DNA of 32,000 nucleotides from Pelotomaculum isophthalicicum JI (GTDB lineage: Bacteria; Bacillota; Desulfotomaculia; Desulfotomaculales; Pelotomaculaceae): contig NZ_JAKOAV010000015.1 of assembly GCF_029478095.1 (NCBI RefSeq), forward strand, positions 3,332-35,331. The letters are read 5' to 3'. The position numbers were made by a program, and so were the translations under genes. The notes below the pieces were generated by a model. It saw only the letters and a program-made list of their open reading frames with translations. It made no database searches and was not told where the DNA came from. Below, piece by piece: positions 4,342 through 32,000 of the stretch (within the stretch, counting starts at the first letter, position 1; every line of letters begins with the position of its first letter).

Positions 4342-4354
4342 AATTATACTCCTC

Positions 4355-9720: not shown

Positions 9721-9776
9721 AGTCCTATTCCCAATAAAATCACCGTTTTATGACGTTCTTCTATCATTAGACTTGC

Positions 9777-9946: not shown

Positions 9947-10336
9947 TTAAATAGGCCTTAATAATCTTTCCAAAATAAATATTTGCGCCACATAGTTGCA
10001 ATTTTCCATAATCTTTTTGATTTCTTCCGGTCCGGCATTGTCCACGTGTATACCTGCAACTACTACCACAGGTTTACCAAAAGCTAATGCTATTTTTTCC
10101 GCAATAGGTTTGGCTACTTCGTCATCTTTATGACCTAACAAAGGTATAACGCTTGTGTTGCAGCTAACTTTAGTATTGTCGGATATGCTGGGCCTGGTCA
10201 GGCTTATTGCAACTGCTCCTACATGCGGCTTATCGCCACCATAAAGATGTGCGACTAAACCGTCTCCGGTAATTGAAACCATCAAGTCAACCCTGTATTT
10301 CCCAAGACCCGCAGTATATAAAACTTGTTCCGCCAA
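9947..10336 (-). CDS. Small LpdD-like protein (putative prenylated-flavin chaperone / UbiD partner)
   Basis: 129 aa. GGDKPHVGAVAISL...VIPLLGHKDDEVAKPIAEKIA...VVVAGIHVDNA resembles my recollection of LpdD/ShdD-type subunits of UbiD decarboxylases. TTG start with SD AGGGAGGGA. It has its own sigma-54 promoter. Confidence 0.5.
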   Translation of the reverse strand: MAEQVLYTAGLGKYRVDLMVSITGDGLVAHLYGGDKPHVGAVAISLTRPSISDNTKVSCNTSVIPLLGHKDDEVAKPIAEKIALAFGKPVVVVAGIHVDNAGPEEIKKIMENCNYVAQIFILERLLRPI

Positions 10337-10386
10337 TTTATTCCCTCCCTAAAGGACTCATAAATTAAAAGCTGCTTAATATTAAT

Positions 10387-10402
10387 TGCAATTTATATGC
10401 CA
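10387..10402 (-). promoter_or_regulatory. Sigma-54 (-24/-12) promoter driving the LpdD-like gene
   Basis: Minus strand reads TGGCATATAAATTGCA, a near-perfect match to TGGCAC-N5-TTGCA, about 50 nt upstream of the TTG start at 10336. Confidence 0.75.
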
Positions 10403-10455
10403 AGTCTATTCCCAACAAATTCAGCTTTTTGTTACGATCTCTATCCTTAGCTTGT

Positions 10456-10494
10456 AAAACTTAAAAGGGTTGGTCACCTTTAGAGAACCAACCC
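10456..10494 (-). terminator. Intrinsic terminator-like hairpin after activator copy 2 (paralogous to 9777..9816)
   Basis: Minus strand reads GGGTTGGTTCtctaaaggTGACCAACCC (8 bp perfect plus mismatches) followed by TTTTAAGTTTT. Confidence 0.5.
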
Positions 10495-10537
10495 TGTATT
10501 TCATACTATATTAATATCCTTGCTGTCCTTATTTGGG

Positions 10538-11896
10538 TTAATCACATTTAAACTTTCGCAATTTATTATATAATGTTGTTAAAGAGATACCTAACGCTTG
10601 GGCAGCTTCTTTTTTGCCGGCCAAGGAAGGGCCGTACTTTGCGAGTGCACGGCTTATCATCGACCTTTCCAGTTCCTCTAACGAGACAATGGATTCAGGT
10701 TTTTGAGAAGGCAGTGGCGACAGGCAAATATCATCCGCCTTGATCCATTCCCCGTCACATAGAGTGCCGGCTTTTTCCAGAACATTTTCCAATTCACGAA
10801 TATTTCCCGGCCAGCAGTGGTTTGCCAACTTGCCTAAAGCTTCATTTTCCAAACCTTTTATTACCCTACCAACCCGGCAGCTAATTTTAGGCAGCAAGTT
10901 CCGCGCTACCAAGGGAATATCGTCAATTCGTTCACGCAGCGGTGGAATCTCTATACTCACTACATTCAACCGGTAATATAAATCTATTCGAAACAAATCC
11001 TTTGTAATTAATTCCTCTAAGTTCCGGTTGGTCGCGGCGATCACACGCGTATTTACTTTTATTTCTTTAGTGCCCCCCAAGCGACGGAACTTTCCGCTCT
11101 GGAGCACCTGCAGCAGTTTGGCCTGCAGCCGCAAATCCATATCTCCAATCTCATCCAGAAAAATAGTCCCTTGATTAGCTAATTCGAAAGTCCCAATTTT
11201 TTGATGACCTGCTCCAGTAAATGAACCTTTTTCATAGCCGAAAAATTCACTTTCCAAGAGACTATCCGGAACGGCCGCGCAATTCACATTAACAAACGGC
11301 TGATACCGACGTGTGCTGTTATTATGAATGGCTTCAGCGAACAACTGCTTTCCCGTACCGCTTTCCCCTCGTAAAAGTACGGTGGAGTCTGTCCGTGAAA
11401 CTCGCTTAGCTATAGTTACGGCTTCTTTAAAACATTGAGTTTGACCAGCTATTGTATTAAAATCATATATTGCCTGTCCAATTTGATTGGACCTATCTGA
11501 AGAGATCCGAATGTCTTCCCGGGCTTTAGCTAATTTATCTAACATGTTCATCGCTTCCGGGACTCCACGAAAGAATACAATTGCCCCAACAAACTGGTTG
11601 TCAATGTGGATCGGAAAGGCGTTGGAAAGGACTTCAGTTTGAGCTCCCGGTGGCAAATGTTTTTTGCCAAAAACCGGTTGACCAGTCAATATAACCTCTG
11701 TTAATGCTCCATACGGGTTCGTTTTTAATATATTTTGACCAATTCTTTTCTGTCCGTCATTTCTACAAATTAAAGTGTATGAATTATTGGCATAGACAAT
11801 ATTGCCTTCGCGATCAGCAAGAAGAATTCCCTCCGGGGAAGAGTCTAAAACTGCGCGCCCCAGTATACCGATACTTTCTACAAGGCTATTAAACAA
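10538..11896 (-). CDS. Sigma-54-dependent transcriptional activator, copy 2 (paralogue of 965..2338)
   Basis: Same domain order and motifs as copy 1 (GESGTGK, GSFTGAG, WPGNIRELEN, C-terminal HTH). TTG start with SD GGGAGTGA. The roughly 40-bp leader is also conserved with copy 1. Confidence 0.9.
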   Translation of the reverse strand: MFNSLVESIGILGRAVLDSSPEGILLADREGNIVYANNSYTLICRNDGQKRIGQNILKTNPYGALTEVILTGQPVFGKKHLPPGAQTEVLSNAFPIHIDNQFVGAIVFFRGVPEAMNMLDKLAKAREDIRISSDRSNQIGQAIYDFNTIAGQTQCFKEAVTIAKRVSRTDSTVLLRGESGTGKQLFAEAIHNNSTRRYQPFVNVNCAAVPDSLLESEFFGYEKGSFTGAGHQKIGTFELANQGTIFLDEIGDMDLRLQAKLLQVLQSGKFRRLGGTKEIKVNTRVIAATNRNLEELITKDLFRIDLYYRLNVVSIEIPPLRERIDDIPLVARNLLPKISCRVGRVIKGLENEALGKLANHCWPGNIRELENVLEKAGTLCDGEWIKADDICLSPLPSQKPESIVSLEELERSMISRALAKYGPSLAGKKEAAQALGISLTTLYNKLRKFKCD

Positions 11897-12493: not shown

Positions 12494-12550
12494 AAATATG
12501 GCACCCCCTGTCTATACTACCATTGTATAACAGAAAGTGCCAAAGGTAAA

Positions 12551-12610
12551 TACATTTATTATTTTAAATATACATCTTTTATTTTAAAACTACTTTTACT
12601 ATTTTAAATC
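12551..12610. repeat. Three contiguous 20-bp direct repeats (TACWTYTWYT-ATTTTAAA-NN); candidate TnsB-binding sites of the decayed element's right end
   Basis: tacatttattattttaaata / tacatcttttattttaaaac / tacttttactattttaaatc. 14 of 20 positions are invariant, the period is exactly 20 bp, and the repeats sit 57 bp upstream of the tnsA remnant start. Confidence 0.8.
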
Positions 12611-12636
12611 CACAAAAATCTGTTTGTGTAAAATAA

Positions 12637-12765
12637 TGTTGTACACTAACAGACTCCATCACACAATGATTACTCAACTAAAAAGCAATTAACACAAAAA
12701 AATAGTTGTACACTATAATTCTAGCGTTTTATACTTTATTGAAATATATAGTTGTACACTATAAA
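12637..12765 (-). mobile_element. Putative left (cargo-distal) end of the Tn7-like transposon: three direct GTTGTACACTA repeats
   Basis: GTTGTACACTA occurs at 12638-12648, 12705-12715 and 12751-12761 with similar A/T-rich flanks. The outermost copy is preceded by TGT (12637). The dispersed three-site layout over about 130 bp resembles Tn7 left ends. It lies directly downstream of the last cargo gene. Confidence 0.6.
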
Positions 12766-12790: not shown

Positions 12791-15577
12791 TTAAACCAGC
12801 TCTACTAACCCCAGCAATTTGGCCGAAAACATTGCACCTTCTGGCAATGCACCTTTATATTGCAATTCCCTCTGCAACATTGGCGGTATAACTTCGGATA
12901 TTATGTGTTCTAACCAATCAGCAGTAAAGCCATCCCCAAGGCTAGGTTGCAATTGTTGTAACATCGTCCACGCTTGTTCTATACTTCTGGTTCTTTCCCC
13001 TTCCCTATTAACTCCTAAAGGTATTATCAAACGCTGTATTTGCCCCTTAGCCCCTAAAACCTCAATATGCCATACAGTTAAAACTCCAGTATTATTTAGC
13101 GATGGGATTTTACCACGCAAAGCTCTGTCTTCTGGTGGAAGGTTTGTGTATGCCTCTAACAATTGCTGTATTAACGGATGCTCCAGCCCTAAAAGCGATA
13201 GATTTTCATCTTCAATGGCAATATCTCTTTGGGTAGTAAAACGAACGGATTGCCCATTACCAATATCAGCAATATACGTTTTACCTTTTTCTACTTCTAT
13301 TAACTTCCCATTTTTATATTGTAAAGCTATGGTGGCAAAATGTATTAATCTGAGCATGCCAGCCCCTTTGTCATCATGGGCTTGATAATCAGAAATATTA
13401 AAACCTTCCAAGTCTTGAAAAAGCTCAAAAACAACATTCCTTGCCCTGGCGGCGTTCTCCATAGCCACCTCAATTTCCTGACGGGTACGGCGCAATGCTG
13501 GATCGCGGACCGCATCCTGATACAGGCGGTCGTAAGACAGCCGCTCAAACAACTGTCCCAATATCTGACTACGCAAATCTTCTGATACTTGCCCGTTCTC
13601 GTCAACTTTACCCAATGTCCTGGCGATCTCTTTTAATTTTTCCTCTAACATTAAATATATTTTGCCTTCAATTGTGTCTGCAGCAACAAAATTATAGACC
13701 TGGGCAGTAGACTTCTGACCATAACGGTGAATACGGCCAATCCTTTGCTCCAAATCCATTGGATTCCATGGTAAGTCATGATTAAAAAGAATCCGAGAGA
13801 ATTGAAGGTTTATACCCTCGCGGCCTGCAGCAGTGCAAATTAACACCCTGGGGCCATCCGGCCGTTTGAACCTTTTCTCCGCCGCTGTCTTGGAACCGTG
13901 GTCCCCACCCTTAAGCACTTCCACACCCTGGCCGGGAAAGGTACTCTCGATTGCTCCCTTTATACTGTCTACACTTCCCAAATAGGTGGTAAAGATAACC
14001 ACTTTCTCACTTTGATTGGCCTGCCATATTTCACCTAACGCTCTGAGCAACTCAATTATTTTTGTTTCAATACCACCCGGGAAACGTTCCAGCAGACTAA
14101 AAATACGCCTGCGCTCTTCCGGCAGGGCTAAAGATACAAAATCTGCAGCCGCTTCTTCAGCAGTTCCGGCAGCGATATCACTCGTCCCTTGCAAATCATA
14201 ATTAAGGATGAATGTTTCAGACTCCTCAATTTTTCGCAATACTCTTAAACGATAATCAGCCAAAATACGTTCTGCTTCGGCCCTCCCAATGGGATCAAAA
14301 GGCACATCAAACATATCATGAATCAGCGCGCGGGCTTCAGAAAGGGCGTTATCCCGGCCATCTACATCCATATTCTGATCACAGTGAATTGCTTCATGAA
14401 TTGTTAACATTAATAGTCGCCGGCGCAGTGTTTTTTTGACTGCGGCAAAACTGGATGCCGCGATTTTTTGAAAAATGGTCATGACAAAACCAAGGGCTCT
14501 ACCCTTTCCGCCTTGAGTTTCAGCCAAATTATAACCATCCCGCAAGTAATCCTGCAGAGCATTATAGAATTTTAATTCATCATTATTTAAATGAAAAGCT
14601 TGTGTATTAACAAGCCTCCGGGCGAAAATGGGACGGCCATCCGCTTTACAGGCATCAGCCTTTGTGCGCCTTATCACCACAGCATTTAAACGGTGACGGC
14701 TTTCCACCATTTCCTGCTCATTTTGGAATAGGGTCGGGTCCAATAAACGTACTAGCATCCAAAAACGGAAATGGTCCCCCTGATGTGGAGTAGCCGAAAG
14801 CAATAATAAATCCCGGCAATGGTCCCGGATTGCTTCTGATAATTTATAATTCTCGGTTTTTTTAACCCTCCGCCCATTTTTGTAAGCTGAAAGATGGTGC
14901 GCCTCATCAAATACCACCAAATCCCAGGGGGGAGCTTCCAGCAAACGCTTAACTCTTGCTGGCCGCTTCAAAGTATCGACCGAGGCAATTAACCGATTAT
15001 GTTTGGCAAAAGCATTTGATTTTCGGTCCGTGACATCACCTTCGGAACCAAATATTTCAAAATCAAGGTTAAATGTTTCATTTAACTCCCTGGCCCAGTT
15101 ATTGACTAGCCCCGCCGGCACAATCATTAAAGCCCTTTTCATCTGTCCGCGGGAAGCCAGTTCGCGAAGGATCAAGGCTGTTTCAACAGTTTTTCCGAGA
15201 CCTACCTCATCGGCAATTAAGTATCTTCGCGGTGATGCCATAGCCAGTCTATGTACTAGCACTACCTGATGGGGAAGTAAATCAACTTTAGCTGAAGTAA
15301 GAGTGCTGGCACTCTCCATAAGGGGTAGCTGTTCAGCCTCCCAGGACAGCCATAATAGCTCAAGATTTTTCGGGCTAACTTGGCGCAAACCCGATATTAC
15401 CCTTTGCTCCCAGGTTAATTGACGACGTAACGTTTCTACAGGAACTTGCCGTAGGCCAACAGACTTAAAAAAAACCGCCGCATAACCACCGGGGCTAAAC
15501 GCAGTGATTACACCCTCACCAAGATCCGGGTGATAAACTGACTGACCCGGCTTAAAATCAGGAATAACGGCGGACAT
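12791..15577 (-). CDS. SNF2/Rad54-family helicase (BrxHII-like)
   Basis: 928 aa. Motif I is LIADEVGLGKTVE, motif II DLVVFDEAHHL, motif III LLLSATPHQG, motif V LICTAAGREGINLQ and motif VI HDLPWNPMDLEQRIGRIHRYGQ. The ATG overlaps the upstream gene by 20 nt. Confidence 0.9.
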   Translation of the reverse strand: MSAVIPDFKPGQSVYHPDLGEGVITAFSPGGYAAVFFKSVGLRQVPVETLRRQLTWEQRVISGLRQVSPKNLELLWLSWEAEQLPLMESASTLTSAKVDLLPHQVVLVHRLAMASPRRYLIADEVGLGKTVETALILRELASRGQMKRALMIVPAGLVNNWARELNETFNLDFEIFGSEGDVTDRKSNAFAKHNRLIASVDTLKRPARVKRLLEAPPWDLVVFDEAHHLSAYKNGRRVKKTENYKLSEAIRDHCRDLLLLSATPHQGDHFRFWMLVRLLDPTLFQNEQEMVESRHRLNAVVIRRTKADACKADGRPIFARRLVNTQAFHLNNDELKFYNALQDYLRDGYNLAETQGGKGRALGFVMTIFQKIAASSFAAVKKTLRRRLLMLTIHEAIHCDQNMDVDGRDNALSEARALIHDMFDVPFDPIGRAEAERILADYRLRVLRKIEESETFILNYDLQGTSDIAAGTAEEAAADFVSLALPEERRRIFSLLERFPGGIETKIIELLRALGEIWQANQSEKVVIFTTYLGSVDSIKGAIESTFPGQGVEVLKGGDHGSKTAAEKRFKRPDGPRVLICTAAGREGINLQFSRILFNHDLPWNPMDLEQRIGRIHRYGQKSTAQVYNFVAADTIEGKIYLMLEEKLKEIARTLGKVDENGQVSEDLRSQILGQLFERLSYDRLYQDAVRDPALRRTRQEIEVAMENAARARNVVFELFQDLEGFNISDYQAHDDKGAGMLRLIHFATIALQYKNGKLIEVEKGKTYIADIGNGQSVRFTTQRDIAIEDENLSLLGLEHPLIQQLLEAYTNLPPEDRALRGKIPSLNNTGVLTVWHIEVLGAKGQIQRLIIPLGVNREGERTRSIEQAWTMLQQLQPSLGDGFTADWLEHIISEVIPPMLQRELQYKGALPEGAMFSAKLLGLVELV

Positions 15578-16076
15578 AAAATCCTCCCCCGATTTCTTTT
15601 ACAACTTCATTTCGATGCACATTATTATCCTCGACCATGATTATTTGCGCTTCCCTCGCCACACCGTTCCAAAGAGCAAAGGTTACATTCAGTTCATGTC
15701 CCCCCCGCAAACGTAAATAGGCGTGTTCGTTGGAATCGATTCGCCATTGCCGCCAATTGCAATTACAGCCGAAAACAATTCCTACATTGTTGCCATAAAA
15801 GTCCTGCACCCGTACAATCAATCGTTGAACTCGGTTGCGTAAAAACGTAAAAGCTGCCTCAGAATCCAGCGTCTCTAAAACGGTTTGCAACCCGACAACA
15901 AATATAGTTTTACCATCCCCAGATGGGATGGTAGATGGTAGTTTTCCTCCGATCCAGTTAAGGGCCTTATGCAAGGGTATTTGCACTCCATTTTCTAGTA
16001 GGGGGCTCAATAATTGGGCATCCCATATTAAACTGCTGCCCGAACGTAACCAGCCATTACCCCTTATCTCTCTCAA
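15558..16076 (-). CDS. 172-aa protein of unknown function (candidate DUF3780-, BrxF- or BrxB-like accessory component)
   Basis: There is no ATG in the first ~150 codons. The TTG start at 16076 overlaps the methyltransferase stop (gcTTGA). Both ends are overlapped by neighbouring genes. It contains SGDGKTIFVVG, a degenerate P-loop-like string of uncertain meaning. Confidence 0.6.
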   Translation of the reverse strand: MREIRGNGWLRSGSSLIWDAQLLSPLLENGVQIPLHKALNWIGGKLPSTIPSGDGKTIFVVGLQTVLETLDSEAAFTFLRNRVQRLIVRVQDFYGNNVGIVFGCNCNWRQWRIDSNEHAYLRLRGGHELNVTFALWNGVAREAQIIMVEDNNVHRNEVVKEIGGGFYVRRYS

Positions 16077-19000
16077 GCGTCATACACCTCCCCTTCTTCG
16101 CGTAAATCTAAGGCATATTGAACGAATTTTGGTTTAGTAGGCTTAATTAGATTGTTCTTTCTCCAGCCTTGCAATAAACGCCTACCAAGTTCAGACGCCT
16201 GCCTGATGTGTAAATGCGGAGACATTTCTGCATACCAACCTAAAATAGCCTCAACAGGAGGTTTATAATTTAGTTTTTCTTCACTCAATTCCTTTTGAAT
16301 ATCTATACCGCTTTTAGGAAAGGCTGCCCCGATAACAAAATGGGCAATGTCGAGATCTAGTTTTATTGAATCCCTACGTTTTCCAGGCCGGGTCAAAAAA
16401 GCAAATCTCTGCTCTAACGGTACCACCGATACTTTTTTATTAACCTCCACAACCCAACCCAGTTCTATCAAATCATCTATTGTGACCGTTGTCCCCCTTA
16501 ACATTTTGTGCACGTCATCCCGGGGTAACGTTTCAGTATTCTGAAATAAGCTTAAAAATAGCCGTGTAACAGGCAGTGCAGATTCCGGAGGCCGCTTGAC
16601 AAGATCACCGCCAGTGTCATCCAGCAATTGATTTATTCCTAATAACGCATCTTTTATGGAGAGAACCTCACCGCTCCCGGTAAAAACCTGACCGTAATGA
16701 CGGCTGTAAAATTCTAGGGCTTTCCCTCGTAAAACCACCCTGATATCCGCTTCAGAAATATCCTGGTTGCGATATAATTCAAGGATACGTTGCTGGTTTT
16801 TAACTTCTTCTTTAACCCAGCGGCGCATTTTGGCCCAGGATACAGGTGTTGGATCCTCCAAACGCTTGCGGCAAACATGGAGAATGTCATACTCGATTTT
16901 GCGCGAGCCAAAGGCACCTCCCTCTCCTTTTGTTTCGTCACTACGGATAGGATAAGTGGCTACTAAAATAAATCCAGCCTCAAATAAACTGCGCAAAACA
17001 GCCTCCCACTGCCTGTCGTCATTGTGATGGAAGGTAAAGGCCAACAGTCCACCGGGCTTCAAAACTCTGTTTGCTTCCATCCAGCAGGCTGTAAGAGTAT
17101 TCTCATAAAATTCCGTCGCAGGTTCCGTGCGATAGAGAGGGTTTGGGTCACCAATGTTAAGCGCATTATCCTGCATATAATCCCTTATATATTGTAGGTG
17201 GTCGGCTTTTATAGTCGGCTTCTTTTCCCACTCTTCCCGGTCATCCGGGTGTTCAGCCCTGTTCCTTATTGCTTCAAGAGTTTTTGGTGTAGCCGTGGAA
17301 CGCCAATATTCAGCTTCCGGTTTGTCCTCATACCATTTCAACATCGGTATTCGTAGCCAGACGTAGAAGAAATCTGCCAAGTCAGCGTAAAATACATTGT
17401 CCGAGAAAGGCGGATCAGTTATTACCATGTCAATCATATTATCTTGGCAGAAATTTAAATCAGTAGAAGAAAAACAATATATATCTTCAATACTTTTTAG
17501 TATCTCATTTGTAAATAGATGTTTGCTGCTTTTATTATCTGATGCATTACTTATGTAAACATCCCAAGTATTTTGTAGCCAATTTAGTCCATTAATAACA
17601 TTTTTCTTAATTGAATAATAATTTCCATTACCTAAAGTACCGAAAGGCGCTACTTCAATATTTGTTTGCTTTGGGTAAAAATTATTATTTGCAAATAATT
17701 GGTTATTGTGATCTCTTTTAATATTATATGTGCAAAATAAGTTTAAAAAATTTAATGCCTGACTTAAACCCCCAACGACTTGCTGCAAATCTATTAAAGA
17801 GTGATCTTTGATTTTTAATATGCTTAACCTTAGAACCAAAGAATGCAATAGTAACTGTCTAGGATTAAACATTGTCCACCAATGTGTATAACCCCAATTG
17901 GGAATACCACCATTTAAATGATGCGTCATCCAGGCATATGGAAGCCTCTCCTTTGGCCAATAATCAAACAAATCACCATTTTTACGCTCAGCCCATTCTC
18001 TTTCAGCAAAAATTATTCGCCTTAGATCATAATCATCCGGTGCCTTAAAGTAACGCCCGTTGTAATTATAGCCCTCCGCTTCACATGCCGGACAATGGCA
18101 TTGCAGTGCGTATGTTGCTACCGGTGCTGTCCTGCGGGTGTCTTTTACTATCTCGAGGGCATTTTGGTTGAAATTCGAATCAGCGGCCAGTTCAATTATC
18201 TCTTTGTCCTCTTTTTCCCCTGCTATTATTGCCTGTCGCACCAAAGCAAGCCTACCTGATTGCCGCAACTGATCAACCCATTCAGGGGCATAGCCGCCGG
18301 CTTTCAATGCTTCAGCCATATCGTTAAGTGAAAGGCTCATTTTCACAGCAGTGAGCAAATCGTTCTCACGCCCGCAGGCTGAATTTTGACAGGTAAACTT
18401 GCTTTTACCTGGCACAGTGCCCTGGCGCGTATCCATAACAGTGCCGTCAGGCAGTTCTAAATATCTCGGCAATCCATATTTTTTCCGGTCGGTATCAACA
18501 TCAGCATCATCAATCTCACCGCTATTTAAATCCTGTTCATGGACATTGCCCTCACCGTCTTCTCCTGCGTACTCCTCTTCATCAAAATAAGCATGCGAAT
18601 CATCCTCGTCCAGTTTGATGCGGCCGCGCACTTCAATCAGTTCCAAATTTTTCAACCGCTCACGGAACCAGGCTTCCGTTTGTTCCGCCGTGGCTTTGGC
18701 AAAACCGCCCAAATCCATCTCATTTAATGTGCCGGGAGACCCTTTAAGCCATTCCGGATGAATGAGCAATGTCATGTATACGGGCTTACGCCCTATCCCC
18801 AACGCCTTTTTATCAACATTACCGGACTTGAAGTCATAAACGGGCTCATTGTTGACATAACCTTTTATTTTACCCCGCTGGCGCTCCAGTTCAGTAATTA
18901 ATTTTTCACCTGAAAAAGTTCCACAAGAAGGACAACACAAGCCTGGTTCATCGCCGGCGGATTCCAACAACCGTAATATTCCGGCCAGTTTTTCACCGGC

Positions 19001-20053
19001 GTTGCCCTTACTGTAATCTTTTAAACCCCGGGCATACGCTTGAGAAAGCTCCGTAAATTTACCTTCACCCGGCAGTATAACCCTGGGCGCTCCCGGCGCC
19101 ATCCGGGTTTCACCCAATTCGGCATGAAAAGACGTACCGCAGGAGGGACACTTTAATTCAATGTAACTGGTGGACAACTTTTTTTCCGCTACAACAGGCG
19201 AGCGAAAAACGGGTGTACGGTGGCCACAGCCGGTAGCAGGGCAAGGGCCATGTTTGGCCCAAAATGTATAGATAACCTCCGGCCCTTCCCAGCGATAATT
19301 ATGTCTTTCTTCTGGTGGCAAATCGATAGGATCCACAGATGCTATTTCATTTGTTCGTACATCAATCCAATTGCCCTTATGCCCACGGGGGCAGGTAGTT
19401 GTATAAAATGGCTGTATTTGAGGCTTTACTTCAGCCTCAATATGTTCAAAAAGTTTAGCAACCTCTTCCGGGTCTGAACAAGACAGTTCGTTTTTCACTA
19501 CCAACCATGCTACAGGGTTTAAATCAACCCCGTACATTTGCATGCCCAGGCGGGCTCCTTCAACCAGAGTGGTCCCACCACCCATAAAGTTATCTAAAAC
19601 TTTAAGATTTTTAAAATTTCCGGCCTTCTGGTGGTTTGCATAGTAATGCTCCCACACTTTTTTCGCAGCTTCGGCAGGATCTTCAGGGGCCTCGGTGGCA
19701 GCTGCTATCAAGGTTGATCTAAAAACTGAAGACCGTCTCCGTGCCCACCATTTTGACATTTGATAAATAGGTTTACCAGCGTTACCTTCCAGGGCTGACA
19801 AGGCATTAATTGGCGCTATGGGGAAATCCACCTCAAGGCAGGTTTTGGGACGGTCTGGATCAGAAAAATCCGGTACCTTTAGACGAACTGCTTTTCCTAA
19901 ATTGGGTGGAGCATCTTTTTGAATAATTTTTTTGGTAGTGCTTTTTGTTTCATTAAAGTTTAAGCTGGGACTCTCTAAAATTTTAAGCTGCTCATTATCA
20001 ACAACTAGTTGTAAATCACCATTTGTTGACTTGCTTTTTCGTCTAGCTGCCAT
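16073..20053 (-). CDS. Large DUF1156-type (COG1743-like, PF01555-class) N6-adenine/N4-cytosine DNA methyltransferase with multiple Zn-ribbons (PglXI-like)
   Basis: 1326 aa. N-terminal MSKWWARRRSSVFR (DUF1156 hallmark). AdoMet motif VLDNFMGGGTTLVEGARLG. Catalytic motif IV VITDPPF at residues ~880-883. C-terminal GGLLAFTFHH...AGFILVATYPIRSDET. Several CxxC...CxxC pairs (CPSCGTSF, CCPSCGT, CHCPACEAEG). Confidence 0.9.
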   Translation of the reverse strand: MAARRKSKSTNGDLQLVVDNEQLKILESPSLNFNETKSTTKKIIQKDAPPNLGKAVRLKVPDFSDPDRPKTCLEVDFPIAPINALSALEGNAGKPIYQMSKWWARRRSSVFRSTLIAAATEAPEDPAEAAKKVWEHYYANHQKAGNFKNLKVLDNFMGGGTTLVEGARLGMQMYGVDLNPVAWLVVKNELSCSDPEEVAKLFEHIEAEVKPQIQPFYTTTCPRGHKGNWIDVRTNEIASVDPIDLPPEERHNYRWEGPEVIYTFWAKHGPCPATGCGHRTPVFRSPVVAEKKLSTSYIELKCPSCGTSFHAELGETRMAPGAPRVILPGEGKFTELSQAYARGLKDYSKGNAGEKLAGILRLLESAGDEPGLCCPSCGTFSGEKLITELERQRGKIKGYVNNEPVYDFKSGNVDKKALGIGRKPVYMTLLIHPEWLKGSPGTLNEMDLGGFAKATAEQTEAWFRERLKNLELIEVRGRIKLDEDDSHAYFDEEEYAGEDGEGNVHEQDLNSGEIDDADVDTDRKKYGLPRYLELPDGTVMDTRQGTVPGKSKFTCQNSACGRENDLLTAVKMSLSLNDMAEALKAGGYAPEWVDQLRQSGRLALVRQAIIAGEKEDKEIIELAADSNFNQNALEIVKDTRRTAPVATYALQCHCPACEAEGYNYNGRYFKAPDDYDLRRIIFAEREWAERKNGDLFDYWPKERLPYAWMTHHLNGGIPNWGYTHWWTMFNPRQLLLHSLVLRLSILKIKDHSLIDLQQVVGGLSQALNFLNLFCTYNIKRDHNNQLFANNNFYPKQTNIEVAPFGTLGNGNYYSIKKNVINGLNWLQNTWDVYISNASDNKSSKHLFTNEILKSIEDIYCFSSTDLNFCQDNMIDMVITDPPFSDNVFYADLADFFYVWLRIPMLKWYEDKPEAEYWRSTATPKTLEAIRNRAEHPDDREEWEKKPTIKADHLQYIRDYMQDNALNIGDPNPLYRTEPATEFYENTLTACWMEANRVLKPGGLLAFTFHHNDDRQWEAVLRSLFEAGFILVATYPIRSDETKGEGGAFGSRKIEYDILHVCRKRLEDPTPVSWAKMRRWVKEEVKNQQRILELYRNQDISEADIRVVLRGKALEFYSRHYGQVFTGSGEVLSIKDALLGINQLLDDTGGDLVKRPPESALPVTRLFLSLFQNTETLPRDDVHKMLRGTTVTIDDLIELGWVVEVNKKVSVVPLEQRFAFLTRPGKRRDSIKLDLDIAHFVIGAAFPKSGIDIQKELSEEKLNYKPPVEAILGWYAEMSPHLHIRQASELGRRLLQGWRKNNLIKPTKPKFVQYALDLREEGEVYDA

Positions 20054-21051
20054 TACATTTCCTCCGGAAATTCAATTAATGGTACCAATACCTCAAAAAC
20101 TGTTAACCCTCCATGTGTCAGGTGGGGGTAACCTCCCTGTATCTTCCAGCGCCTTTGTCCCAGCACCATATGGTGATTATTTATGGTTGTGGCCAATGCA
20201 GGCATAAAACCGACAGGGAACGGAGTATCAGCCACACATGAACGGCTTGCGCCAAAATATTTAATTAAAATGTCTTTAGCTTGTTGTTCAGTTTCTTCGT
20301 TGGAAAATAATTTGCAATTAGCATAGCCATGATCTGAAGCAATAACCAGTTTCCTGCCTTTTCGCATTTTATTGACTAACTGCCAAAAGCCTGGACTGGT
20401 AAGTTCCTGTTGCACAGCATTCTCTACTTCCTCGGGTTCCCTTTTATAAAGGTGGATTAAGTCGTCAAGCCAACAGTGCCAAATAAATATATCCGGCGAA
20501 GGAGGAACGTCTCCTAGACAGTCCTGAAAAGGAGATGTCAATACATCGGTCCGGGTGGTCTTCCCTCCCAAAAGGAAAGAATCTGTAGCACCATTATTAA
20601 AAAGGCTCGCTCTGGATGGCATACCTAAAGCTTTGGCAAATTGTTCTGTTTCCGTTGGTAATTCAGCTCCTGTTATTTTTACAGAAACAGGATCCAACCC
20701 ATTAGCCCTGGCATTTTCAATTAACGGTTTCAATTCCCGCAAAGACAAAGCGTCAAGGATCAGTATAGCCCTGCCACCTACAGAGTTATCTTCCCACCAG
20801 CCTTTTAAGGCCTCCGCTGTACTGGTTACACAATCTATAAAATCATGCCATAGATTCCAGGCCGACTCTGCCAGTAACCTATCCAGTTTTACTGTAGCCT
20901 GATGCAGCATGGTCGGACTTACTTCCGGGGCTATCTCTAAAAGATAATTGATTATAGCCAGCCAGCAATTCTGGCTATTAGTATCATTTAATAAATTAAT
21001 CAATAAGTCTTGTTGTTTATTCAATAACTCTTTGTTTATATTACCCATCAA
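20053..21051 (-). CDS. pglZ: Stand-alone short PglZ-domain (alkaline-phosphatase superfamily) protein
   Basis: Motifs AILILDALSLRE, ELPTETEQFAKALG (nucleophile region), VIASDHGY and THGGLTVFEVLVPLIEF match the PglZ core. The track start at 21051 is TTG. ATG at 21048 overlaps the upstream stop (TGATG). The stop overlaps the methyltransferase start (TAATG). Confidence 0.8.
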   Translation of the reverse strand: MMGNINKELLNKQQDLLINLLNDTNSQNCWLAIINYLLEIAPEVSPTMLHQATVKLDRLLAESAWNLWHDFIDCVTSTAEALKGWWEDNSVGGRAILILDALSLRELKPLIENARANGLDPVSVKITGAELPTETEQFAKALGMPSRASLFNNGATDSFLLGGKTTRTDVLTSPFQDCLGDVPPSPDIFIWHCWLDDLIHLYKREPEEVENAVQQELTSPGFWQLVNKMRKGRKLVIASDHGYANCKLFSNEETEQQAKDILIKYFGASRSCVADTPFPVGFMPALATTINNHHMVLGQRRWKIQGGYPHLTHGGLTVFEVLVPLIEFPEEM

Positions 21052-23807
21052 TCTTTTCCCTCCGGCATGGTAACTTCCAAAATTGCCCGGGTGGTCGGCG
21101 GTAATTTTTGCAACAAGGCTTTTAGTTCTTTGACTGTAAGGCCTTTAAATTCCAGCTTTGCCAGGGATAATTTATCTGCTGTAGCCAATCCCCAGTTTTC
21201 AAATTCACCGGAAAGATTTAGGGTTGTTTTTTCCTCACTTCGTTTAACAGTAGGAGGCTTTATCCCCATTGTAGTCCCGGGTGTACCGTTCCTGGGAATT
21301 CCAATGGTTCCTCCACATATCGGGCCATCGCCTGGTGGCTCAGGAACTGGAACACCTGGTCCATTAACAGGCGGGACAACTGGGTCTGTAGGAATCGGAG
21401 GTGTCGTTGTCGGTGGTTGTGGCGGCGGAATCACGGTATCAGCACCTACTACGTCAGCTGTACCTAATATAATGTCATATAGCTCCTTACCACGTTTGGA
21501 TGCCTTTGTCCGTAACATCTGCAAAGTTACCTGATCATTTGCATGATCATCTTTCTTGCCCAGCCAGCTACCGCCTACATTAAGATAAATTTTCCCTGAT
21601 GCAGCCACCCGCAATATCTGCTCATAAATATAGATTTCTCCCAAATAAGGTACAGGCTCAACACCAGGCTTCACCGGTGGTTCCTTTAACTCAGTAAGAA
21701 ACGCCCCGACTGTCTGGGTATTGGAAGCAGCTTCTCCTACCATAATTTCAAAGTCTTCGAATGCAAACAAATTTTCTCTTATGACTTTTTCCACTTCATT
21801 TACAATTTCTGTACCACTCTTTGTTATCTGCTCAAAAGTAAATTTGCAATTTTGGGGGTTTTGAAAGTCCCAACTTTGTAAAACGGCAAAGCGATCATAA
21901 CGTGAACTGAGGGCTTTAATTAAATCGGTACGGAATTTACTTCCTTCTTTATTGTAATGTGCATCATTATTCCCCCATTGTTTACCCAGTAACGCAGCCC
22001 TGGCCTGAATAACTATTTCTTTGTCATCAAATATTGAGGAAGTGCCAACTTTAGGCAAAAGAAAACGTACTACATTCCGCTGTTTCGTTACATGTTTTTT
22101 CAGCCAGAGGCCCAGGTCGGAATTAAAATTTTCGGTGACTGCAGGTACTACAAATAAAACCGGTCTGTCCCAGCGCTCTGGTTGGTCATTTTCATCCAGA
22201 CCCTCCCACGGTGAGGTTAACCAAGAGGGTCCCGGGACAATTACTCTTGCCACAGACTCAGCGGCTACAGGTGTTAATGCATAACGTAATGTACTACGCA
22301 TGTATTCTTTATCACTACCATCTTCGAATAACTTATCATTTTTTGCCGAGGCCAATAATTTTGCCCTGGCGTTTTCTTCGACTTTAAACCTAAGGCGAGG
22401 CTGAACACCTTCCTCCTCATGAATATTGAAGGAGTTCTCTTTTATTTGAGTCAGTTCATCATTAAAAATATTGTCGTCGATTACAGATGACCTTGTAATA
22501 TCTAAATGCAACTCTTCTCTAATTCCACCAACTTTTATGCCAGGAGAAATGGACCGCATCCATAATGCGCTGATAATTCCTCTGGCGTTCGGGGCCTGTA
22601 CACCTGCTTGAATGACAGCCTCTAAATTTCGCTGAGCAATTTCTCTTAGCCGGTCTTGCTTTTCATCCGAAATAGCGTCCAGCAAAGACTGGACACCGCA
22701 GTCAACATTATCTACTGCAAAGTCTGCCGGTGTAATTATGCAATTACTTTCCGGTGTAGCCTTAAATATCTGTACTAGCACCTTAATCAAATCTCTGGAG
22801 CCCTGGGCTGCTTCTGAAAGTAAAATCTGATCTTCTAATAAATCTATTAACTCAGGTGCAAAGGGCCATGATTCCACCACTTCATTATGAATCCGGTCAT
22901 ATTCTGCTGCCGGTAAATGGCTATAGAGCAATCGAAACCGTTCAGCGGCATATACTGCTGTAGCTTGGCGTATTTCATTATCTGGAATATTACGCCGGTT
23001 TTCAAAAAGCCTATGCAAAACCAACCGTTTACGATCAGTTTTCGCTGTAACCCCTTTGAAATCAACCAGTGCGGGATTATCACGGTGGACCTGCCTATAG
23101 GCATCAGTTTGATTGTTACGAACAGAAATTATAAACCTAAAGATATCAGGGCGGTCCTTTGATAATTCCGAAAGGTTTTGTATGAAATTAAATGTCCAGG
23201 TGCGACGTTTACGACCGGTATCACCTGGCTCATCGTTAAGTCCATCAAACCAAGTTTGAAACTCATCAACAATAAGAACTGTTGGTTGTAGAGAAAACAT
23301 CTCTTCCATTAACGATCTGGCTGGAACAGGCACTCCCGAGGCCTCAAATTTCCCCTGCATTTTTTGCCCAGAAGGATGGCGCTCAAAAAGCAGGTCCCAT
23401 AGATATTCATATTCATTATTATGAACTGCTTCGGTTATTGGATAAAAACCTGAGGATAATTGTAAGTTTATCAGCTTATCGTTTCTCAGGCGCTGTCCCC
23501 AATCTTGTGCCCACGTCTCCACCACATCACGCGAAACGACAGCATGGTGGAGAGCTGCCATGATATGAGATTTACCGCGCCCCCTGTCGCCAATAAGAAC
23601 AACAGGCTTGCCAGTTCCCGCTTCACTGATAGCAAATAGTGCTTTTTGCAAATCTACAACTGGGTAGGTAATTCTAAAAAAATCCTCACTAGGTAAATCT
23701 AATGCGCCGGTACCATCGTCCCTCCGAAAGACAATGGCAGTATCACGCATATGCCCGTTTAAAAATTCCGCCCGCAGTTTCAAATCAAGCATAATTTTTT
23801 CCCCCAA
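21048..23807 (-). CDS. DUF499/BrxC(PglY)-like P-loop ATPase
   Basis: Walker A is VVLIGDRGRGKSHIMAAL and Walker B is VLIVDEFQTWF. The size and N-terminal layout are typical of COG1483/DUF499. The track start at 23807 is TTG. ATG at 23792 (MLDLKLRAEF) lies 8 nt after the SD GGGGGA and is more likely. The C-terminus has a Pro-rich linker plus a domain of about 90 aa. Confidence 0.85.
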   Translation of the reverse strand: MGEKIMLDLKLRAEFLNGHMRDTAIVFRRDDGTGALDLPSEDFFRITYPVVDLQKALFAISEAGTGKPVVLIGDRGRGKSHIMAALHHAVVSRDVVETWAQDWGQRLRNDKLINLQLSSGFYPITEAVHNNEYEYLWDLLFERHPSGQKMQGKFEASGVPVPARSLMEEMFSLQPTVLIVDEFQTWFDGLNDEPGDTGRKRRTWTFNFIQNLSELSKDRPDIFRFIISVRNNQTDAYRQVHRDNPALVDFKGVTAKTDRKRLVLHRLFENRRNIPDNEIRQATAVYAAERFRLLYSHLPAAEYDRIHNEVVESWPFAPELIDLLEDQILLSEAAQGSRDLIKVLVQIFKATPESNCIITPADFAVDNVDCGVQSLLDAISDEKQDRLREIAQRNLEAVIQAGVQAPNARGIISALWMRSISPGIKVGGIREELHLDITRSSVIDDNIFNDELTQIKENSFNIHEEEGVQPRLRFKVEENARAKLLASAKNDKLFEDGSDKEYMRSTLRYALTPVAAESVARVIVPGPSWLTSPWEGLDENDQPERWDRPVLFVVPAVTENFNSDLGLWLKKHVTKQRNVVRFLLPKVGTSSIFDDKEIVIQARAALLGKQWGNNDAHYNKEGSKFRTDLIKALSSRYDRFAVLQSWDFQNPQNCKFTFEQITKSGTEIVNEVEKVIRENLFAFEDFEIMVGEAASNTQTVGAFLTELKEPPVKPGVEPVPYLGEIYIYEQILRVAASGKIYLNVGGSWLGKKDDHANDQVTLQMLRTKASKRGKELYDIILGTADVVGADTVIPPPQPPTTTPPIPTDPVVPPVNGPGVPVPEPPGDGPICGGTIGIPRNGTPGTTMGIKPPTVKRSEEKTTLNLSGEFENWGLATADKLSLAKLEFKGLTVKELKALLQKLPPTTRAILEVTMPEGKD

Positions 23808-23948
23808 AAAGATATTAATCCTTATGTGAAAATCTATAATATCAATTCATAATAATATTATATCCATTTTTATCCGTTTCTTTTAAGCAGAACAGTCAAA
23901 ATAGCTCACATGAAAATTCTACAAAATCATAAATAAACCTCCAATTAT

Positions 23949-24137
23949 TTACCTGAATTGATTATTAATATTGCTGGTAAAAATTGTGGCAAATAAAAGT
24001 AATGAGGAAGCCACAGGACCTGGACCGGTCAAGCCTTCCTCTGTGGTCACCGGTCCAGGACCTATGGGGTTGTGATTGAAAACTCGCTCCAAGGGTCGGG
24101 CGGTCGTGCTCTTGCGGCATTCCTTATTTACTGCCAT
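23949..24137 (-). CDS. Hypothetical 62-aa protein (possible small membrane protein) in the intergenic region between the KAP gene and the BREX-like operon
   Basis: ATG preceded by a strong SD GGGAGGG at 8 nt. C-terminal hydrophobic stretch VASSLLLFATIFTS. The ORF also contains a 14-bp inverted repeat that may be the real functional element. Confidence 0.3.
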   Translation of the reverse strand: MAVNKECRKSTTARPLERVFNHNPIGPGPVTTEEGLTGPGPVASSLLLFATIFTSNINNQFR

Positions 24138-29018: not shown

Positions 29019-30890
29019 TCATAAATTTTCTATTTCCTTCTGAATCTGCTGTTCTATTTTTTCAGAATACCCCGGTCGAAGCCCCGCCTCGCGGACGATT
29101 TTCCACGTTCGCAGCAATTCCCCCTGCTCACGCAATTTTTCTACCGCATATTCTACTCGTCTAACTTGAAAATTCTCCGCCGTTTCAACCACTTCTTGAA
29201 GAATACTCTTGGTTTTCGGCAACTTCTCCAAGTGTTTTTGCAGTAGCGCCAGTTCCCCAACCCGCTTACCTATTGAACTAATAGTCAAACGAACCGGCCT
29301 ACCGGGCACCTGTTTAATCTCCTGCGCTGCCATGGACACCCGTTCCGCCAATTCCTCGTCGCGTTTAACCCAATTCACGCGCCTGTCAGTATATTTCATC
29401 CGGCGTATCGGGGTAGGTGAATGATCATTTAGCCAGTCACGGTCATGCCGATAAAGCCAAGCATATTCTGCTTTTGTCGACCGGCGCAGTTCCGTCTTCG
29501 TTTTGCCAGGATTATGCTCCGCAATCTCCAGCCAACGGGCTCGATATTTATTCAATTCGCTTTGAAAATCCCTCATTGATAAATCATTTATTAACTGGTC
29601 ATTACTTTGGTCTTGTATTTTTTTCAATTGATTTTTTATAGTTTTCGGGTCTACATTAAGTTGCCGTGCAGATTCTCGTAGTCCCTTTTTCTCTACTACC
29701 GCCAGACGAATCAATTCTTTTTCCCAGGTAGGGCCAAATGATTTTATACGCCCAATTTTATATCGGTCTGATTCCTTTTGATCGGGCCCGCATCTTAAAT
29801 AAGTAAACCCGCAACTACATGAAAAGGTGCCAACAGGTAATCCTGTATCATAATCCCGGGTTAAGCTACATTGCTCAATGACAGGCTGACGGTAGTGGTT
29901 TGCTGCCGCATTTAAGCAAGGCCAAGGTCCACGGCCGAAAGGAAGATAACGCTCTTTCCTACCGGTCAAAAATTTCTCCGGCATTACGCCAAGAAACCTC
30001 ATAAAAAGGATGTGACGTATGGGATATGTAGTAATCCTGGGTTCTCGGACCAGCTTACTTAACCAATTGTCCTGATGATCATAATCAACTGCACTATTCA
30101 TTTGTACAAGAAATTCCGGCCCATAAAAACTCTTAAACGATTCAATCAGGTCTCGCTGTCTTACCCTGCCTGTATATGTTGCCAGGTCTATCTTTTGCAA
30201 GTGGTTGATATATCGATTTCGAAGTTCTGCCAAACCGAGTATCGGGGCTTCATTATTGAGTAGCCAATGAACCGCCTCGGCAACCGCCAGGTAGTGCGAG
30301 AAATCATTTTCTGGGTTAAACGACTTTAATTGCTCTTGTTTATAGTTTTTGATTAAGGGTTGAAAGACATGTTTGTTTTGCTGGGCTGAAACCGCGACAT
30401 CGCTTTCGGTTAACCAGATTTTATGATCAGGACAGATCTGAACGCCAAATACCTGGTGGATCCGGTGCCAATATGGTTCACCGTATTGTTCCTCATCGGC
30501 CTGCATGCACTCATGGCAATAACGGAGAAACCTTGGAGAAGTAATGCTGCTGGCCATGATACCAATCATCGTATGGATCTGCCCCCCATTTGAACCTTTC
30601 ATCGCTTGAATTATCTTGTTAGCCCTTTCTTTTGGCAAAAATGGTCTAAATAATGGAAACAAAGAGTGCCGATTGATCACAAGTTCCGGCGTAATCAGAG
30701 AGCCATGAGGTAAACGTTTATACAATGCCTCCAGACGATTCGGCAGATCCATCACCGCACAGGCCGTTTTGCAGCCGAAAAGGTCCATCATCGTATCCTT
30801 TAAGCTCATATTTCTGCTCCACATGTGATACCTGGCGAAGACGCTATAAAGGATTTCATCTGGATAAGGCGTCGGGAAAAACGGTAACAT
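29019..30890 (-). CDS. tnsD: TnsD/TniQ-family transposition target-selection protein
   Basis: 623 aa. The N-terminus MLPFFPTPYPDEILYSVFARYHMWS is the typical TniQ-domain opening. Cys/His clusters (CHECMQADEEQYGEPYWHRIHQVFGVQICPDH). HTH-like segment ESARQLNVDPKTIKNQLKK. It starts 15 bp after the tnsC stop with SD GGGGGGAAG. Confidence 0.8.
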   Translation of the reverse strand: MLPFFPTPYPDEILYSVFARYHMWSRNMSLKDTMMDLFGCKTACAVMDLPNRLEALYKRLPHGSLITPELVINRHSLFPLFRPFLPKERANKIIQAMKGSNGGQIHTMIGIMASSITSPRFLRYCHECMQADEEQYGEPYWHRIHQVFGVQICPDHKIWLTESDVAVSAQQNKHVFQPLIKNYKQEQLKSFNPENDFSHYLAVAEAVHWLLNNEAPILGLAELRNRYINHLQKIDLATYTGRVRQRDLIESFKSFYGPEFLVQMNSAVDYDHQDNWLSKLVREPRITTYPIRHILFMRFLGVMPEKFLTGRKERYLPFGRGPWPCLNAAANHYRQPVIEQCSLTRDYDTGLPVGTFSCSCGFTYLRCGPDQKESDRYKIGRIKSFGPTWEKELIRLAVVEKKGLRESARQLNVDPKTIKNQLKKIQDQSNDQLINDLSMRDFQSELNKYRARWLEIAEHNPGKTKTELRRSTKAEYAWLYRHDRDWLNDHSPTPIRRMKYTDRRVNWVKRDEELAERVSMAAQEIKQVPGRPVRLTISSIGKRVGELALLQKHLEKLPKTKSILQEVVETAENFQVRRVEYAVEKLREQGELLRTWKIVREAGLRPGYSEKIEQQIQKEIENL

Positions 30891-30905: not shown

Positions 30906-32000
30906 CTACCTGGCCAGGAACTCACTTGCTGGCTTGATCATGCCAGCATCCTTTAGTGCTTGATAAGCAGGGATGCCTTTCTTTTTACTTTTCTCCACAA
31001 TTTCTCGCAGGTCGCCTGATAAAGAGACTACCTTATCTTTCCGCTTACGGCGGTTCGGTTCTTGCTTAGATTCTTCTTTTTCCGAGCTTTCATCTTCCTG
31101 GCTCGCTAAATATTTTACGGCAAGTGTAAACGCCTCTTGCATCACCAATTTCAGATTAATTCCTGAACCGTGCCGGTTCAACGCTTTAACGGTACATTCC
31201 CTGGCTGTCTTTGGTTCGATTCCCGCCTCGACCAGCCACCGTGCCACTTGAATAATAAGCGATTCCGCGTCATCATCCATAATATTTTTCTCCGCCTTTT
31301 GCTGATTACGCAAAGTATTCAATGTTCCCTCGATTGTAATGCGGTCTGTAGCGCGGTGGAGATATTCGTCCAGATTGCGAATCGGCGGATAAATATCGCT
31401 GATCTGGCTAAGTTTCTGAATATCTCTCGCTTTAAGGGCATCAAGAATCGGTTTGGCCAATTTAAGACTTTCCCTGGCAACATCCCGGATCAGGCCGGGA
31501 TAAATTCGTTCATCTTCCTGTCCGATTACATGCCATTGGGCTAGCATGTACAACTTGACAGCAATATCCACGATCCCTTGAGATTCTTCATATAACACTT
31601 GTCTTAACGCCGGAGTTAAAGAGGAAGAAACGTTTGTCCACTGGTACTCCCATAAACCATCGATAAAAAAGTCCCAAACATCATCCCGGGCAAGGTTGGC
31701 CCATATCAAATCTCCCTGACCGGCACTTCGCCGGGCTTGGGCAAACTCCCTGGTCATAAAGTGTAGCGCCTTAAATGTACCTACCAGTACAACAGGAACA
31801 CCAATGGTATTCACCATCTGCACAAAAAAATTCAGCATCTTTGCTGCCCCACCGCTTTTTGCTTCATTAAGGCGTTGGATTTCGTCAATTACCAGAACAC
31901 CCAACCCCAAAGCCGCAGCCAAATGGGCCATATTCGGCAAAAGCTCGTCAACAGTACGACGGCTGTTTCCGAATTTTTGATAGTATCGTGTACCAAGGAT
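30906..32000 (-). CDS. tnsC: TnsC/TniB-family AAA+ transposition ATPase (C-terminal ~364 aa; N-terminus beyond the window end)
   Basis: Walker B is GVLVIDEIQRL, followed by VPVVLVGT and sensor-like motifs. The reading frame stays open from the track's TTG at 31940 to base 32000 (ILGTRYYQKFGNSRRTVDELLPNMAHL...), so the gene is truncated by the window. Confidence 0.8.
   Translation of the reverse strand: MLGTRYYQKFGNSRRTVDELLPNMAHLAAALGLGVLVIDEIQRLNEAKSGGAAKMLNFFVQMVNTIGVPVVLVGTFKALHFMTREFAQARRSAGQGDLIWANLARDDVWDFFIDGLWEYQWTNVSSSLTPALRQVLYEESQGIVDIAVKLYMLAQWHVIGQEDERIYPGLIRDVARESLKLAKPILDALKARDIQKLSQISDIYPPIRNLDEYLHRATDRITIEGTLNTLRNQQKAEKNIMDDDAESLIIQVARWLVEAGIEPKTARECTVKALNRHGSGINLKLVMQEAFTLAVKYLASQEDESSEKEESKQEPNRRKRKDKVVSLSGDLREIVEKSKKKGIPAYQALKDAGMIKPASEFLAR

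Follow-up and report, generated by a model that had tools for sequence, protein, structure and literature searches.

A defence system centred on a DUF499-family ATPase was described as the Type-3 BREX-related (BR) system by Rakesh and Krishnan (Nucleic Acids Res 2026; PMC12839542), who reported it in 569 taxa. Its DNA methyltransferase (MTase) is of the DUF1156 type and in a subset carries two four-Cys zinc fingers, its helicase is BrxHII-like and has lost its nuclease, a standalone active PglZ is near-universal, and a small inactive STAND protein is present in 82% (PMC12839542). Two sister systems are known, Type-1 BR, which is the Hma system of PADLOC, and Type-2 BR, formerly Gao_RL and now MANTIS (PMC12839542; MANTIS preprint 10.64898/2026.09.23.753747). 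Here a stretch of 32,000 nucleotides from Pelotomaculum isophthalicicum JI (contig NZ_JAKOAV010000015.1; hereafter the window) was analysed, in which five minus-strand genes (12791-23792) encode, in this order, a DUF499-family AAA+ ATPase, PglZ, a DUF1156 MTase, a protein of 172 amino acids (aa) and an SNF2 helicase. This region is very probably an intact Type-3 BR anti-phage system, which a Tn7-like transposon carries as its terminal cargo and for which a mechanism of DNA marking and restriction can be proposed.

Hma shares with the window operon the helicase-methylase-ATPase trio, and it gives the best PADLOC score of the MTase, whereas its helicase has a defence-conferring nuclease domain and the system lacks PglZ and the inactive STAND NTPase (iSTAND) (PMC8565338; for Halomonas, PMC11232893). 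MANTIS, which separates self from non-self by methylation, is the only member of the BR family with a reconstituted mechanism (10.64898/2026.09.23.753747). Its MtsA (DUF499) and MtsB are both required to load the MTase, which hemimethylates adenines at short asymmetric sites, and recognition of unmodified sites triggers restriction by a helicase-nuclease (10.64898/2026.09.23.753747). The window encodes a homologous DUF499 ATPase, a DUF1156-type MTase and a small accessory protein; the two differ in that MtsB is a DUF3780 protein and not an iSTAND, and MtsD is a helicase-PLD nuclease, whereas the window has a nuclease-less helicase and a separate PglZ.

The type-3 BREX class is said to come from the classification of Goldfarb in 2015. 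These systems use BrxC/DUF6079, a multidomain PglZ of ~640 aa and the DNA-binding protein BrxA (PMC12839542), none of which was detected in the window operon. Both have a BrxHII-type SNF2 helicase, an MTase similar to PglXI whose internal insert for recognition has a zinc finger (here a predicted one), the PglZ catalytic domain, and a further small protein, the iSTAND being the counterpart of BrxB and of the inactive P-loop protein BrxF. In type-1 BREX, BrxC binds the PglZ-BrxB pair via the inactive AAA+ domain of BrxB (PDB 9zn5).

The five-gene operon and its place in the Type-3 BR class

The operon matches the published definition of Type-3 BR feature for feature. All five components are present and nothing essential differs, the window copy being set apart by its membership of a clade of long MTases and by its status as Tn7 cargo. 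Gene order, strand and sizes are kept in essentially all of the 80 genome loci that were long enough, with PglZ identities down to 38%, and these loci span many bacterial phyla and archaea; the same five-gene order on one strand occurs in Moorella, Desulfosarcina and a JGI metagenome contig. Short PglZ relatives were found encoded in 412 of the reference species genomes scanned, including Methanoperedens and Methanococcoides. An earlier reading of this DNA (the sequence-only reading) had considered composition and order non-canonical or divergent; they turn out to be the standard, conserved Type-3 BR architecture of hundreds of species, in which the 172-aa protein is a regular iSTAND. The same reading placed the operon in a DUF499-DUF1156-SNF2 defence family, BREX-3-like without being canonical BREX-3, and the family and profile matches agree with this placement.

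The locus itself is already recorded. In an exact-sequence look-up, four of the five operon proteins, a neighbouring KAP NTPase and a 62-aa open reading frame (ORF) matched public records exactly, within the accession series WP_277443845-851 and, from a metagenome-assembled genome (MAG), OPX92059-92065. The helicase accession WP_277443845.1 is present in a helicase-domain alignment of Rakesh and Krishnan, and OPX92064.1 is listed in their iSTAND alignment (PMC12839542). The latter is assigned to the 172-aa protein, since in the numbering it follows OPX92063, the MTase, and precedes OPX92065, the helicase; the exact 172-aa sequence with its TTG start was not in the protein collection, and the link is one of gene order, not of identity. 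The 172-aa family profile aligned over its full length with the published Type-3 BR iSTAND Representative_1 (hhalign probability 99.9%, E 7e-33), and this match, together with the listed accessions, indicates that the locus had been catalogued as Type-3 BR. A term search of the machine-read supplement text returned no Klebsiella accessions, and the same search missed WP_277443845, which is present there. Architecture and locus are thus both known.

The protein identities proposed by the sequence-only reading hold, those of the ATPase, PglZ and the 172-aa protein at the level of family or fold. The central ATPase is of the DUF499 type and distinct from BrxC/DUF6079: in a sample of its family, 24 of 30 members matched PF04465 (DUF499) and DUF6079/BrxC was matched neither by any of the 30 nor by the window protein, which gave weak matches to AAA_16 and generic AAA Pfam models, below every DUF499 threshold. 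The family counts over 2000 proteins, 900-940 aa in length. Walker A (GDRGRGKS, residues 68-75) and Walker B (LIVDEF, residues 172-177) are both intact, and the C-terminus consists of a Pro-rich linker followed by a domain of ~90 aa.

PglZ comprises an N-terminal helical bundle and a catalytic domain. Scans with the hidden Markov models (HMMs) of PADLOC and NCBIfam gave weak matches, in which PglZ models aligned by their C-terminal halves only; the best NCBIfam match, BREX_PglZ_3 (NF033449), reached 23.7 of the 250 bits required, over model positions 503-641 of 642. The AlphaFold2 (AF2) model is confident (pLDDT 93.8), and its top Foldseek matches were PorX PglZ domains (E 2e-11), followed by the BREX PglZ of Acinetobacter (9zn5_B, E 7e-8); the family profile also reaches the PglZ of PDB entry 9nv3_C (E 9e-4). 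In an alignment of 47 family sequences, D99, S102, D195, H199, D239, H240 and H312 are invariant, with a Ser at the presumed position of the catalytic nucleophile. The protein is thus standalone and apparently active. It was earlier described as reduced to its catalytic core; it is indeed a bare catalytic domain, but a length of ~320 aa is the norm of the subtype and no sign of divergence, as more than 1000 homologs have a uniform length of 316-332 aa.

The MTase has an AdoMet (S-adenosylmethionine) motif (DNFMGGGTT, residues 154-162), then a large Cys-rich insert, the catalytic DPPF (residues 880-883) and a C-terminal region of ~300 aa. Its Pfam matches, N6_N4_Mtase and DUF1156, are both near or below cutoff; the PADLOC matches were HmaB (5e-31), PglXI (8e-21) and DUF1156_MTase (7e-16), and NCBIfam DUF1156_antiphage gave 78 bits where 1000 are required. 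Cys groups in the insert lie at 271/276, 302/305, 374/377, 555/560 and 652/654/657, a layout kept alike in homologs of 1190 and 1326 aa, and these five conserved pairs would be enough for at least two putative four-Cys zinc sites. The window protein belongs to the long clade (1326 against ~1190 aa), marked by an acidic linker and by ~70 additional aa of helical structure.

The 172-aa protein carries neither Walker A nor Walker B (no GK[ST] and no hhhhD/E motif), and it and 68 relatives found no match in Pfam, PADLOC or NCBIfam. A word-indexed search gave just 4 relatives, so that an exhaustive HMMER search was required; it yielded 121 cluster representatives, nearly all of 160-177 aa and with 23-48% identity. 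Near-invariant positions are W9, G13, P47, G62, L63, F102, W136, G138, G165, R170 and the C-terminal S172. The AF2 model is confident (pLDDT 95.3), and its Foldseek neighbours, which are weak and not significant, have P-loop/AAA+ folds (RFC, ORC, KaiC, Cdc48 and Rad51 paralogs). The protein ends in a near-invariant R-x-S-COOH, whose last codons lie within the 20-nt overlap with the helicase gene; a dual-coding constraint and a functional tail are inseparable, on present data, as explanations of this conserved C-terminus.

The helicase matched the Pfam models SNF2-rel_dom, Helicase_C and ResIII, with a weak RapA_C match at its C-terminus, as well as PADLOC BrxHI|BrxHII (1e-100), HmaA (4e-96), DrmD and DrmA. 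Its NCBIfam matches were RapA (1e-63), DrmD (317 bits, with the cutoff at 610) and phospholipD_antiphage (155 bits, with the cutoff at 1100). No nuclease domain, neither PLD/HKD nor PD-(D/E)XK, was detected by Pfam scan. Searches by sequence of the four other operon proteins against PDB chains, and of the ATPase and 172-aa family profiles against the same chains, gave nothing usable. Anyone relying solely on annotation tools would overlook two of the five components. As judged from sequence, the catalytic motifs of all operon enzymes are intact, namely Walker A/B, DPPF with the AdoMet motif, and the metal and nucleophile residues of PglZ.

All five ORFs are present in the ORF list of the window, and direct reading confirmed the four gene overlaps that had been claimed earlier (Table 1). 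The TTG proposed as the ATPase start (23807) was not upheld; the start is most likely the ATG at 23792, giving the same 914-aa product as the public annotation. GGAGG-like Shine-Dalgarno motifs lie 6-9 nt 5' of every downstream start. Among homologous loci, the gene of the 172-aa protein and that of the helicase overlap by exactly 20 nt, ATG included, in 35 of 47 cases from various bacterial phyla and archaea, and the ATPase/PglZ overlap is 4 nt or 1 nt in 53 of 63. The choice of start codons in this survey was biased to small gaps, a bias that does not explain a recurring exact value; since exact overlaps recur, the junctions are a trait of the family and not due to chance. The five genes form a translationally coupled unit.

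A probable promoter, suggested by a consensus match, precedes the ATPase gene. A terminator-like hairpin (24232-24211, also a consensus match) belongs to the upstream KAP gene, which suggests that the five genes are transcribed as a unit of their own. In the part from 12.6 to 24.3 kb, every minus-strand ORF with 80 aa or more was accounted for, except two short ones nested in the helicase and ATPase genes, and no BrxA model matched any of the five proteins, in keeping with the earlier remark that a BrxA-like gene is missing. Scanning the window for Rfam families and for tRNAs gave no matches. The 62-aa ORF between the KAP gene and the promoter-like site is annotated as hypothetical and holds an imperfect palindrome, GGTCCTGGACCGGT...ACCGGTCCAGGTCC. 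At the position of this ORF, the Type-3 BR loci of Klebsiella and Desulfosarcina have a small helix-turn-helix gene.

Table 1. Positions of operon, transposon and host-side features in the window
Feature	Coordinates	Strand	Basis or remark
DUF499-family AAA+ (ORC/Cdc6-type) ATPase, 914 aa	21048..23792	-	Identical to WP_277443849.1 / OPX92061.1
Standalone PglZ, alkaline-phosphatase-fold phosphodiesterase, 331 aa	20053..21048	-	Weak HMM matches, family alignment, AF2, Foldseek
DUF1156-type N6-adenine DNA methyltransferase, 1326 aa	16073..20053	-	Pfam, PADLOC, NCBIfam, motifs
172-aa inactive STAND NTPase (iSTAND)	15558..16076	-	TTG start; hhalign to published iSTAND
SNF2 (Swi2/Snf2) helicase, BrxHII/RapA-like, 928 aa	12791..15577	-	Identical to WP_277443845.1
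ATPase/PglZ junction	21050-21046	-	TGATG; ATPase stop overlaps PglZ ATG, direct reading
PglZ/MTase junction	20055-20051	-	TAATG; PglZ stop overlaps MTase ATG, direct reading
MTase/172-aa junction	16076-16073	-	TTGA; TTG start of 172-aa gene overlaps MTase TGA
172-aa/helicase junction	15558-15577	-	20-nt overlap containing helicase ATG
Promoter-like site	23857..23886	-	TTAAAA-18-TATAAT, 10/12, ~65 nt 5' of ATPase start; consensus match only
62-aa annotated ORF	23949..24137	-	Between KAP gene and promoter-like site; WP_277443850.1 / OPX92060.1; called in L088 (MVQK01000006.1)
KAP-family P-loop NTPase, 1352 aa	24332..28390	-	Pfam KAP_NTPase 2e-29; second cargo gene, outside the five-gene system
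TnsD/TniQ target selector	29019..30890	-	Pfam TnsD 6e-109, TniQ 9e-24
TnsC (TniB-type AAA+), 3' part	30906..32000	-	Pfam TniB/AAA_22; runs off window; full 572-aa gene in L088
Cargo-distal (left) transposon end	12617..12764	.	Target duplication, terminus, three inward repeats
PAS/sigma-54 activator	965-2338		Paralog; brackets host-side cluster
Chemoreceptor	2485-4341		Host-side cluster
UbiX-like flavoprotein	4355-5002		Host-side cluster
BenE transporter	5063-6328		Host-side cluster
CoA-ligase-like enzyme	6509-7810		Host-side cluster
UbiD-family decarboxylase	8190-9614		Host-side cluster
Bacterial proteasome-chaperone-like protein	9947-10336		Host-side cluster
PAS/sigma-54 activator	10538-11896		Paralog; brackets host-side cluster

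Transposon cargo and spread of the cassette

A Tn7-like transposon sits at the glmS attachment site and carries the five-gene operon as its terminal cargo; the sequence-only reading had already called the operon transposon cargo. Like Tn7-like elements at attTn7, this one has the tnsABCD genes, lies ~24 bp 3' of glmS, bears TnsB-type repeats at its ends and is flanked by a 5-bp duplication. On the identical contig MVQK01000006.1 (locus L088) the order is glmS, tnsA, tnsB, tnsC, tnsD, KAP NTPase, 62-aa ORF and operon; the element measures ~23.2 kb, the last three items make up its entire cargo, and no tnsE was seen in it. The right end, seen on that contig ~24 bp 3' of the glmS stop, has four tightly spaced copies of the repeat in inverted orientation. 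At the left end, three spaced inward TnsB-type repeats (12635-12648, 12702-12715 and 12748-12761), copies of ATAGTTGTACACTA, lie just beyond the helicase stop, and the terminus lies at ~12621/12622, uncertain by 1 nt. AATCT flanks both ends (12617-12621 on the left; on the right as the reverse complement of L088 1622-1626), which fits a 5-bp target duplication. Three spaced and four tight repeats are what we take to be the left-end/right-end pattern of Tn7, and ATAGTTGTACACTA presumably resembles the TnsB site of Tn7. Tn7-like elements often carry defence cargo. Directly outside the left end, at 12548-12614, lie three AT-rich 20-bp tandem units (...TTTATTATTTTAAATATACA...).

The KAP NTPase may be a stand-alone, uncharacterised defence gene. 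Its resemblance to PifA/QatA in PADLOC is restricted to the N-terminus, residues 896-990 weakly match the C-terminal part of DUF6079 (BrxC family), and the protein is the sole member of its 90% cluster. Neither KAP nor TnsD was found in 84 other Type-3 BR loci. The closest operon, with proteins 88-95% identical, is that of the Pelotomaculum sp. MAG SL1-B34.2 (L005 7266-18261), where the context is non-Tn7 and the neighbours are recQ, the reverse transcriptase of a group II intron and an S-layer-homology protein; this copy suggests that the cassette was recently transferred horizontally by itself. The non-Tn7 context in SL1-B34.2, together with the absence of KAP and TnsD elsewhere, indicates that the operon moves independently of the transposon.

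Full-length helicase homologs with 57% identity are encoded by ~30 Klebsiella plasmids and by plasmids of Citrobacter, Raoultella and Enterobacter; many of these helicase-bearing plasmids (H1-H41) come from clinical isolates and some are conjugative IncF plasmids. A single plasmid, pKPN-262, was inspected and proved to hold the complete cassette (NZ_CP007734.1, 252127-265338); there NCBI annotates PglZ and iSTAND merely as "hypothetical protein". In other genomes the cassette adjoins defence genes such as SIR2, HEPN/NTase and BrxC_BrxD. Type-3 BR operons also have two recurrent internal insertion sites. The one between PglZ and MTase genes holds a SIR2 and ATPase pair in Klebsiella pKPN-262 (L085 5370-8247), and the one between the MTase and the small gene holds a pair of an AAA_15/AAA_21 ATPase and DUF4276, with AAA_15 in Desulfosarcina (L002 17327-19068); ~15 further loci carry nested pairs. 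These pairs are defence genes within a defence operon.

Proposed mechanism and alternative explanations

The mechanism was earlier called essentially unstudied. This is true of Type-3 BR, as no experimental report on such a system was found in the literature, but the Type-2 sister MANTIS has an experimental mechanism (10.64898/2026.09.23.753747). By analogy with MANTIS, we infer that the DUF499 ATPase, aided by the 172-aa cofactor, would load or activate the DUF1156 MTase on DNA. The MTase would then N6-methylate adenine within a short, probably asymmetric motif, read by its Cys-rich zinc-finger insert, and so mark self DNA. At unmethylated sites of incoming DNA the recognition complex would engage an effector arm, made up of the SNF2 translocase and the standalone PglZ, in place of the helicase-fused nuclease of Types 1 and 2. 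Rakesh and Krishnan reach the same argument about the effector from the interchange of nuclease and PglZ (PMC12839542). The iSTAND would probably bridge ATPase and PglZ, by analogy with the BrxC-BrxB-PglZ assembly of type-1 BREX, while the overlapping junctions may hold the subunits in fixed proportion. Phage or plasmid DNA would as a result be cleaved, or its replication blocked.

A different part for PglZ is conceivable, though unlikely. The enzyme may act on a phosphorylated protein or nucleotide in the complex and not as a DNA nuclease. The 172-aa protein, in view of its near-invariant C-terminus and the exact 20-nt overlap of its gene with that of the helicase, could then be a regulatory subunit in stoichiometric amount, its tail binding to the PglZ or ATPase site or being modified there. 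If this were true, the long-sought substrate of PglZ, and the methylation/restriction switch of BREX-type immunity, could be identified most simply in the five-gene Type-3 BR operon.

Rather than being primarily antiviral, the operon might also serve through methylation to stabilise the Tn7-like element, as an epigenetic or addiction module, or to regulate host genes. Carriage on a mobile element and on conjugative plasmids would suit such a role, and no phage-defence experiment has been reported for Type-3 BR. Nevertheless, most genomes hold the cassette outside Tn7, with KAP and TnsD absent from the other loci as described above; it lies in defence islands and itself hosts nested defence pairs, and the sister systems were shown to restrict phage and plasmids. 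This explanation is accordingly quite improbable, and the antiviral and epigenetic or addiction roles are not mutually exclusive.

That the operon is Hma or MANTIS, restricting by a helicase-fused nuclease, is harder still to maintain. The HmaB and HmaA matches in PADLOC and the DUF1156_antiphage and phospholipD_antiphage matches in NCBIfam speak for it, but the two NCBIfam scores fall far under their equivalog cutoffs, the 928-aa helicase has a weak RapA_C in place of either nuclease domain at its C-terminus, no DUF3780 gene was found, and PglZ and iSTAND, which define Type-3, are present. DISARM was considered as well; there is no separate DrmA and no DrmB/DUF1998, and the resemblance is confined to the helicase (DrmD and DrmA models). 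Hma, MANTIS and DISARM were all rejected because their defining genes are missing. The least probable explanation is a canonical type-3 BREX (BrxF-BrxC-PglXI-BrxHII-PglZ-BrxA) merely rearranged or partly lost, which the BrxHI/BrxHII match of the helicase, the PglXI match of the MTase and the BREX_PglZ_3 match of PglZ could suggest, but which is opposed by the DUF499 family of the ATPase, by a PglZ aligning with the last ~140 positions of that model and uniformly short among its homologs, by the absence of a BrxA-like ORF from the operon, and by an MTase that carries DUF1156 and scores higher with HmaB than with PglXI; as hundreds of genomes keep this very architecture, it is no decayed BREX-3. 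When plasmids were searched with the helicase as bait for a BrxF reference, a Type-1 BR of Planktothrix and a BREX-5 of Halococcus were obtained, and no BREX-3.

Value of the locus and host surroundings

As a discovery the locus carries little weight, its architecture having been defined in 2025-2026 and the locus itself standing in published alignments. Its practical value is that of an intact, compact copy, with every catalytic motif preserved, of the one BREX-related subtype on which no experimental report was found. It is a good place to test the function of PglZ, because here a bare PglZ stands in for the nuclease of the sister systems. Close relatives lie on conjugative plasmids of clinical Klebsiella, which is much easier to work with than this syntrophic anaerobe, and the Klebsiella link is relevant to phage therapy and to plasmid spread.

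On the host side, window positions 356-11896 hold an aromatic-acid cluster bracketed by two paralogous PAS/sigma-54 activators (Table 1), which fits an isophthalate-degrading Pelotomaculum.

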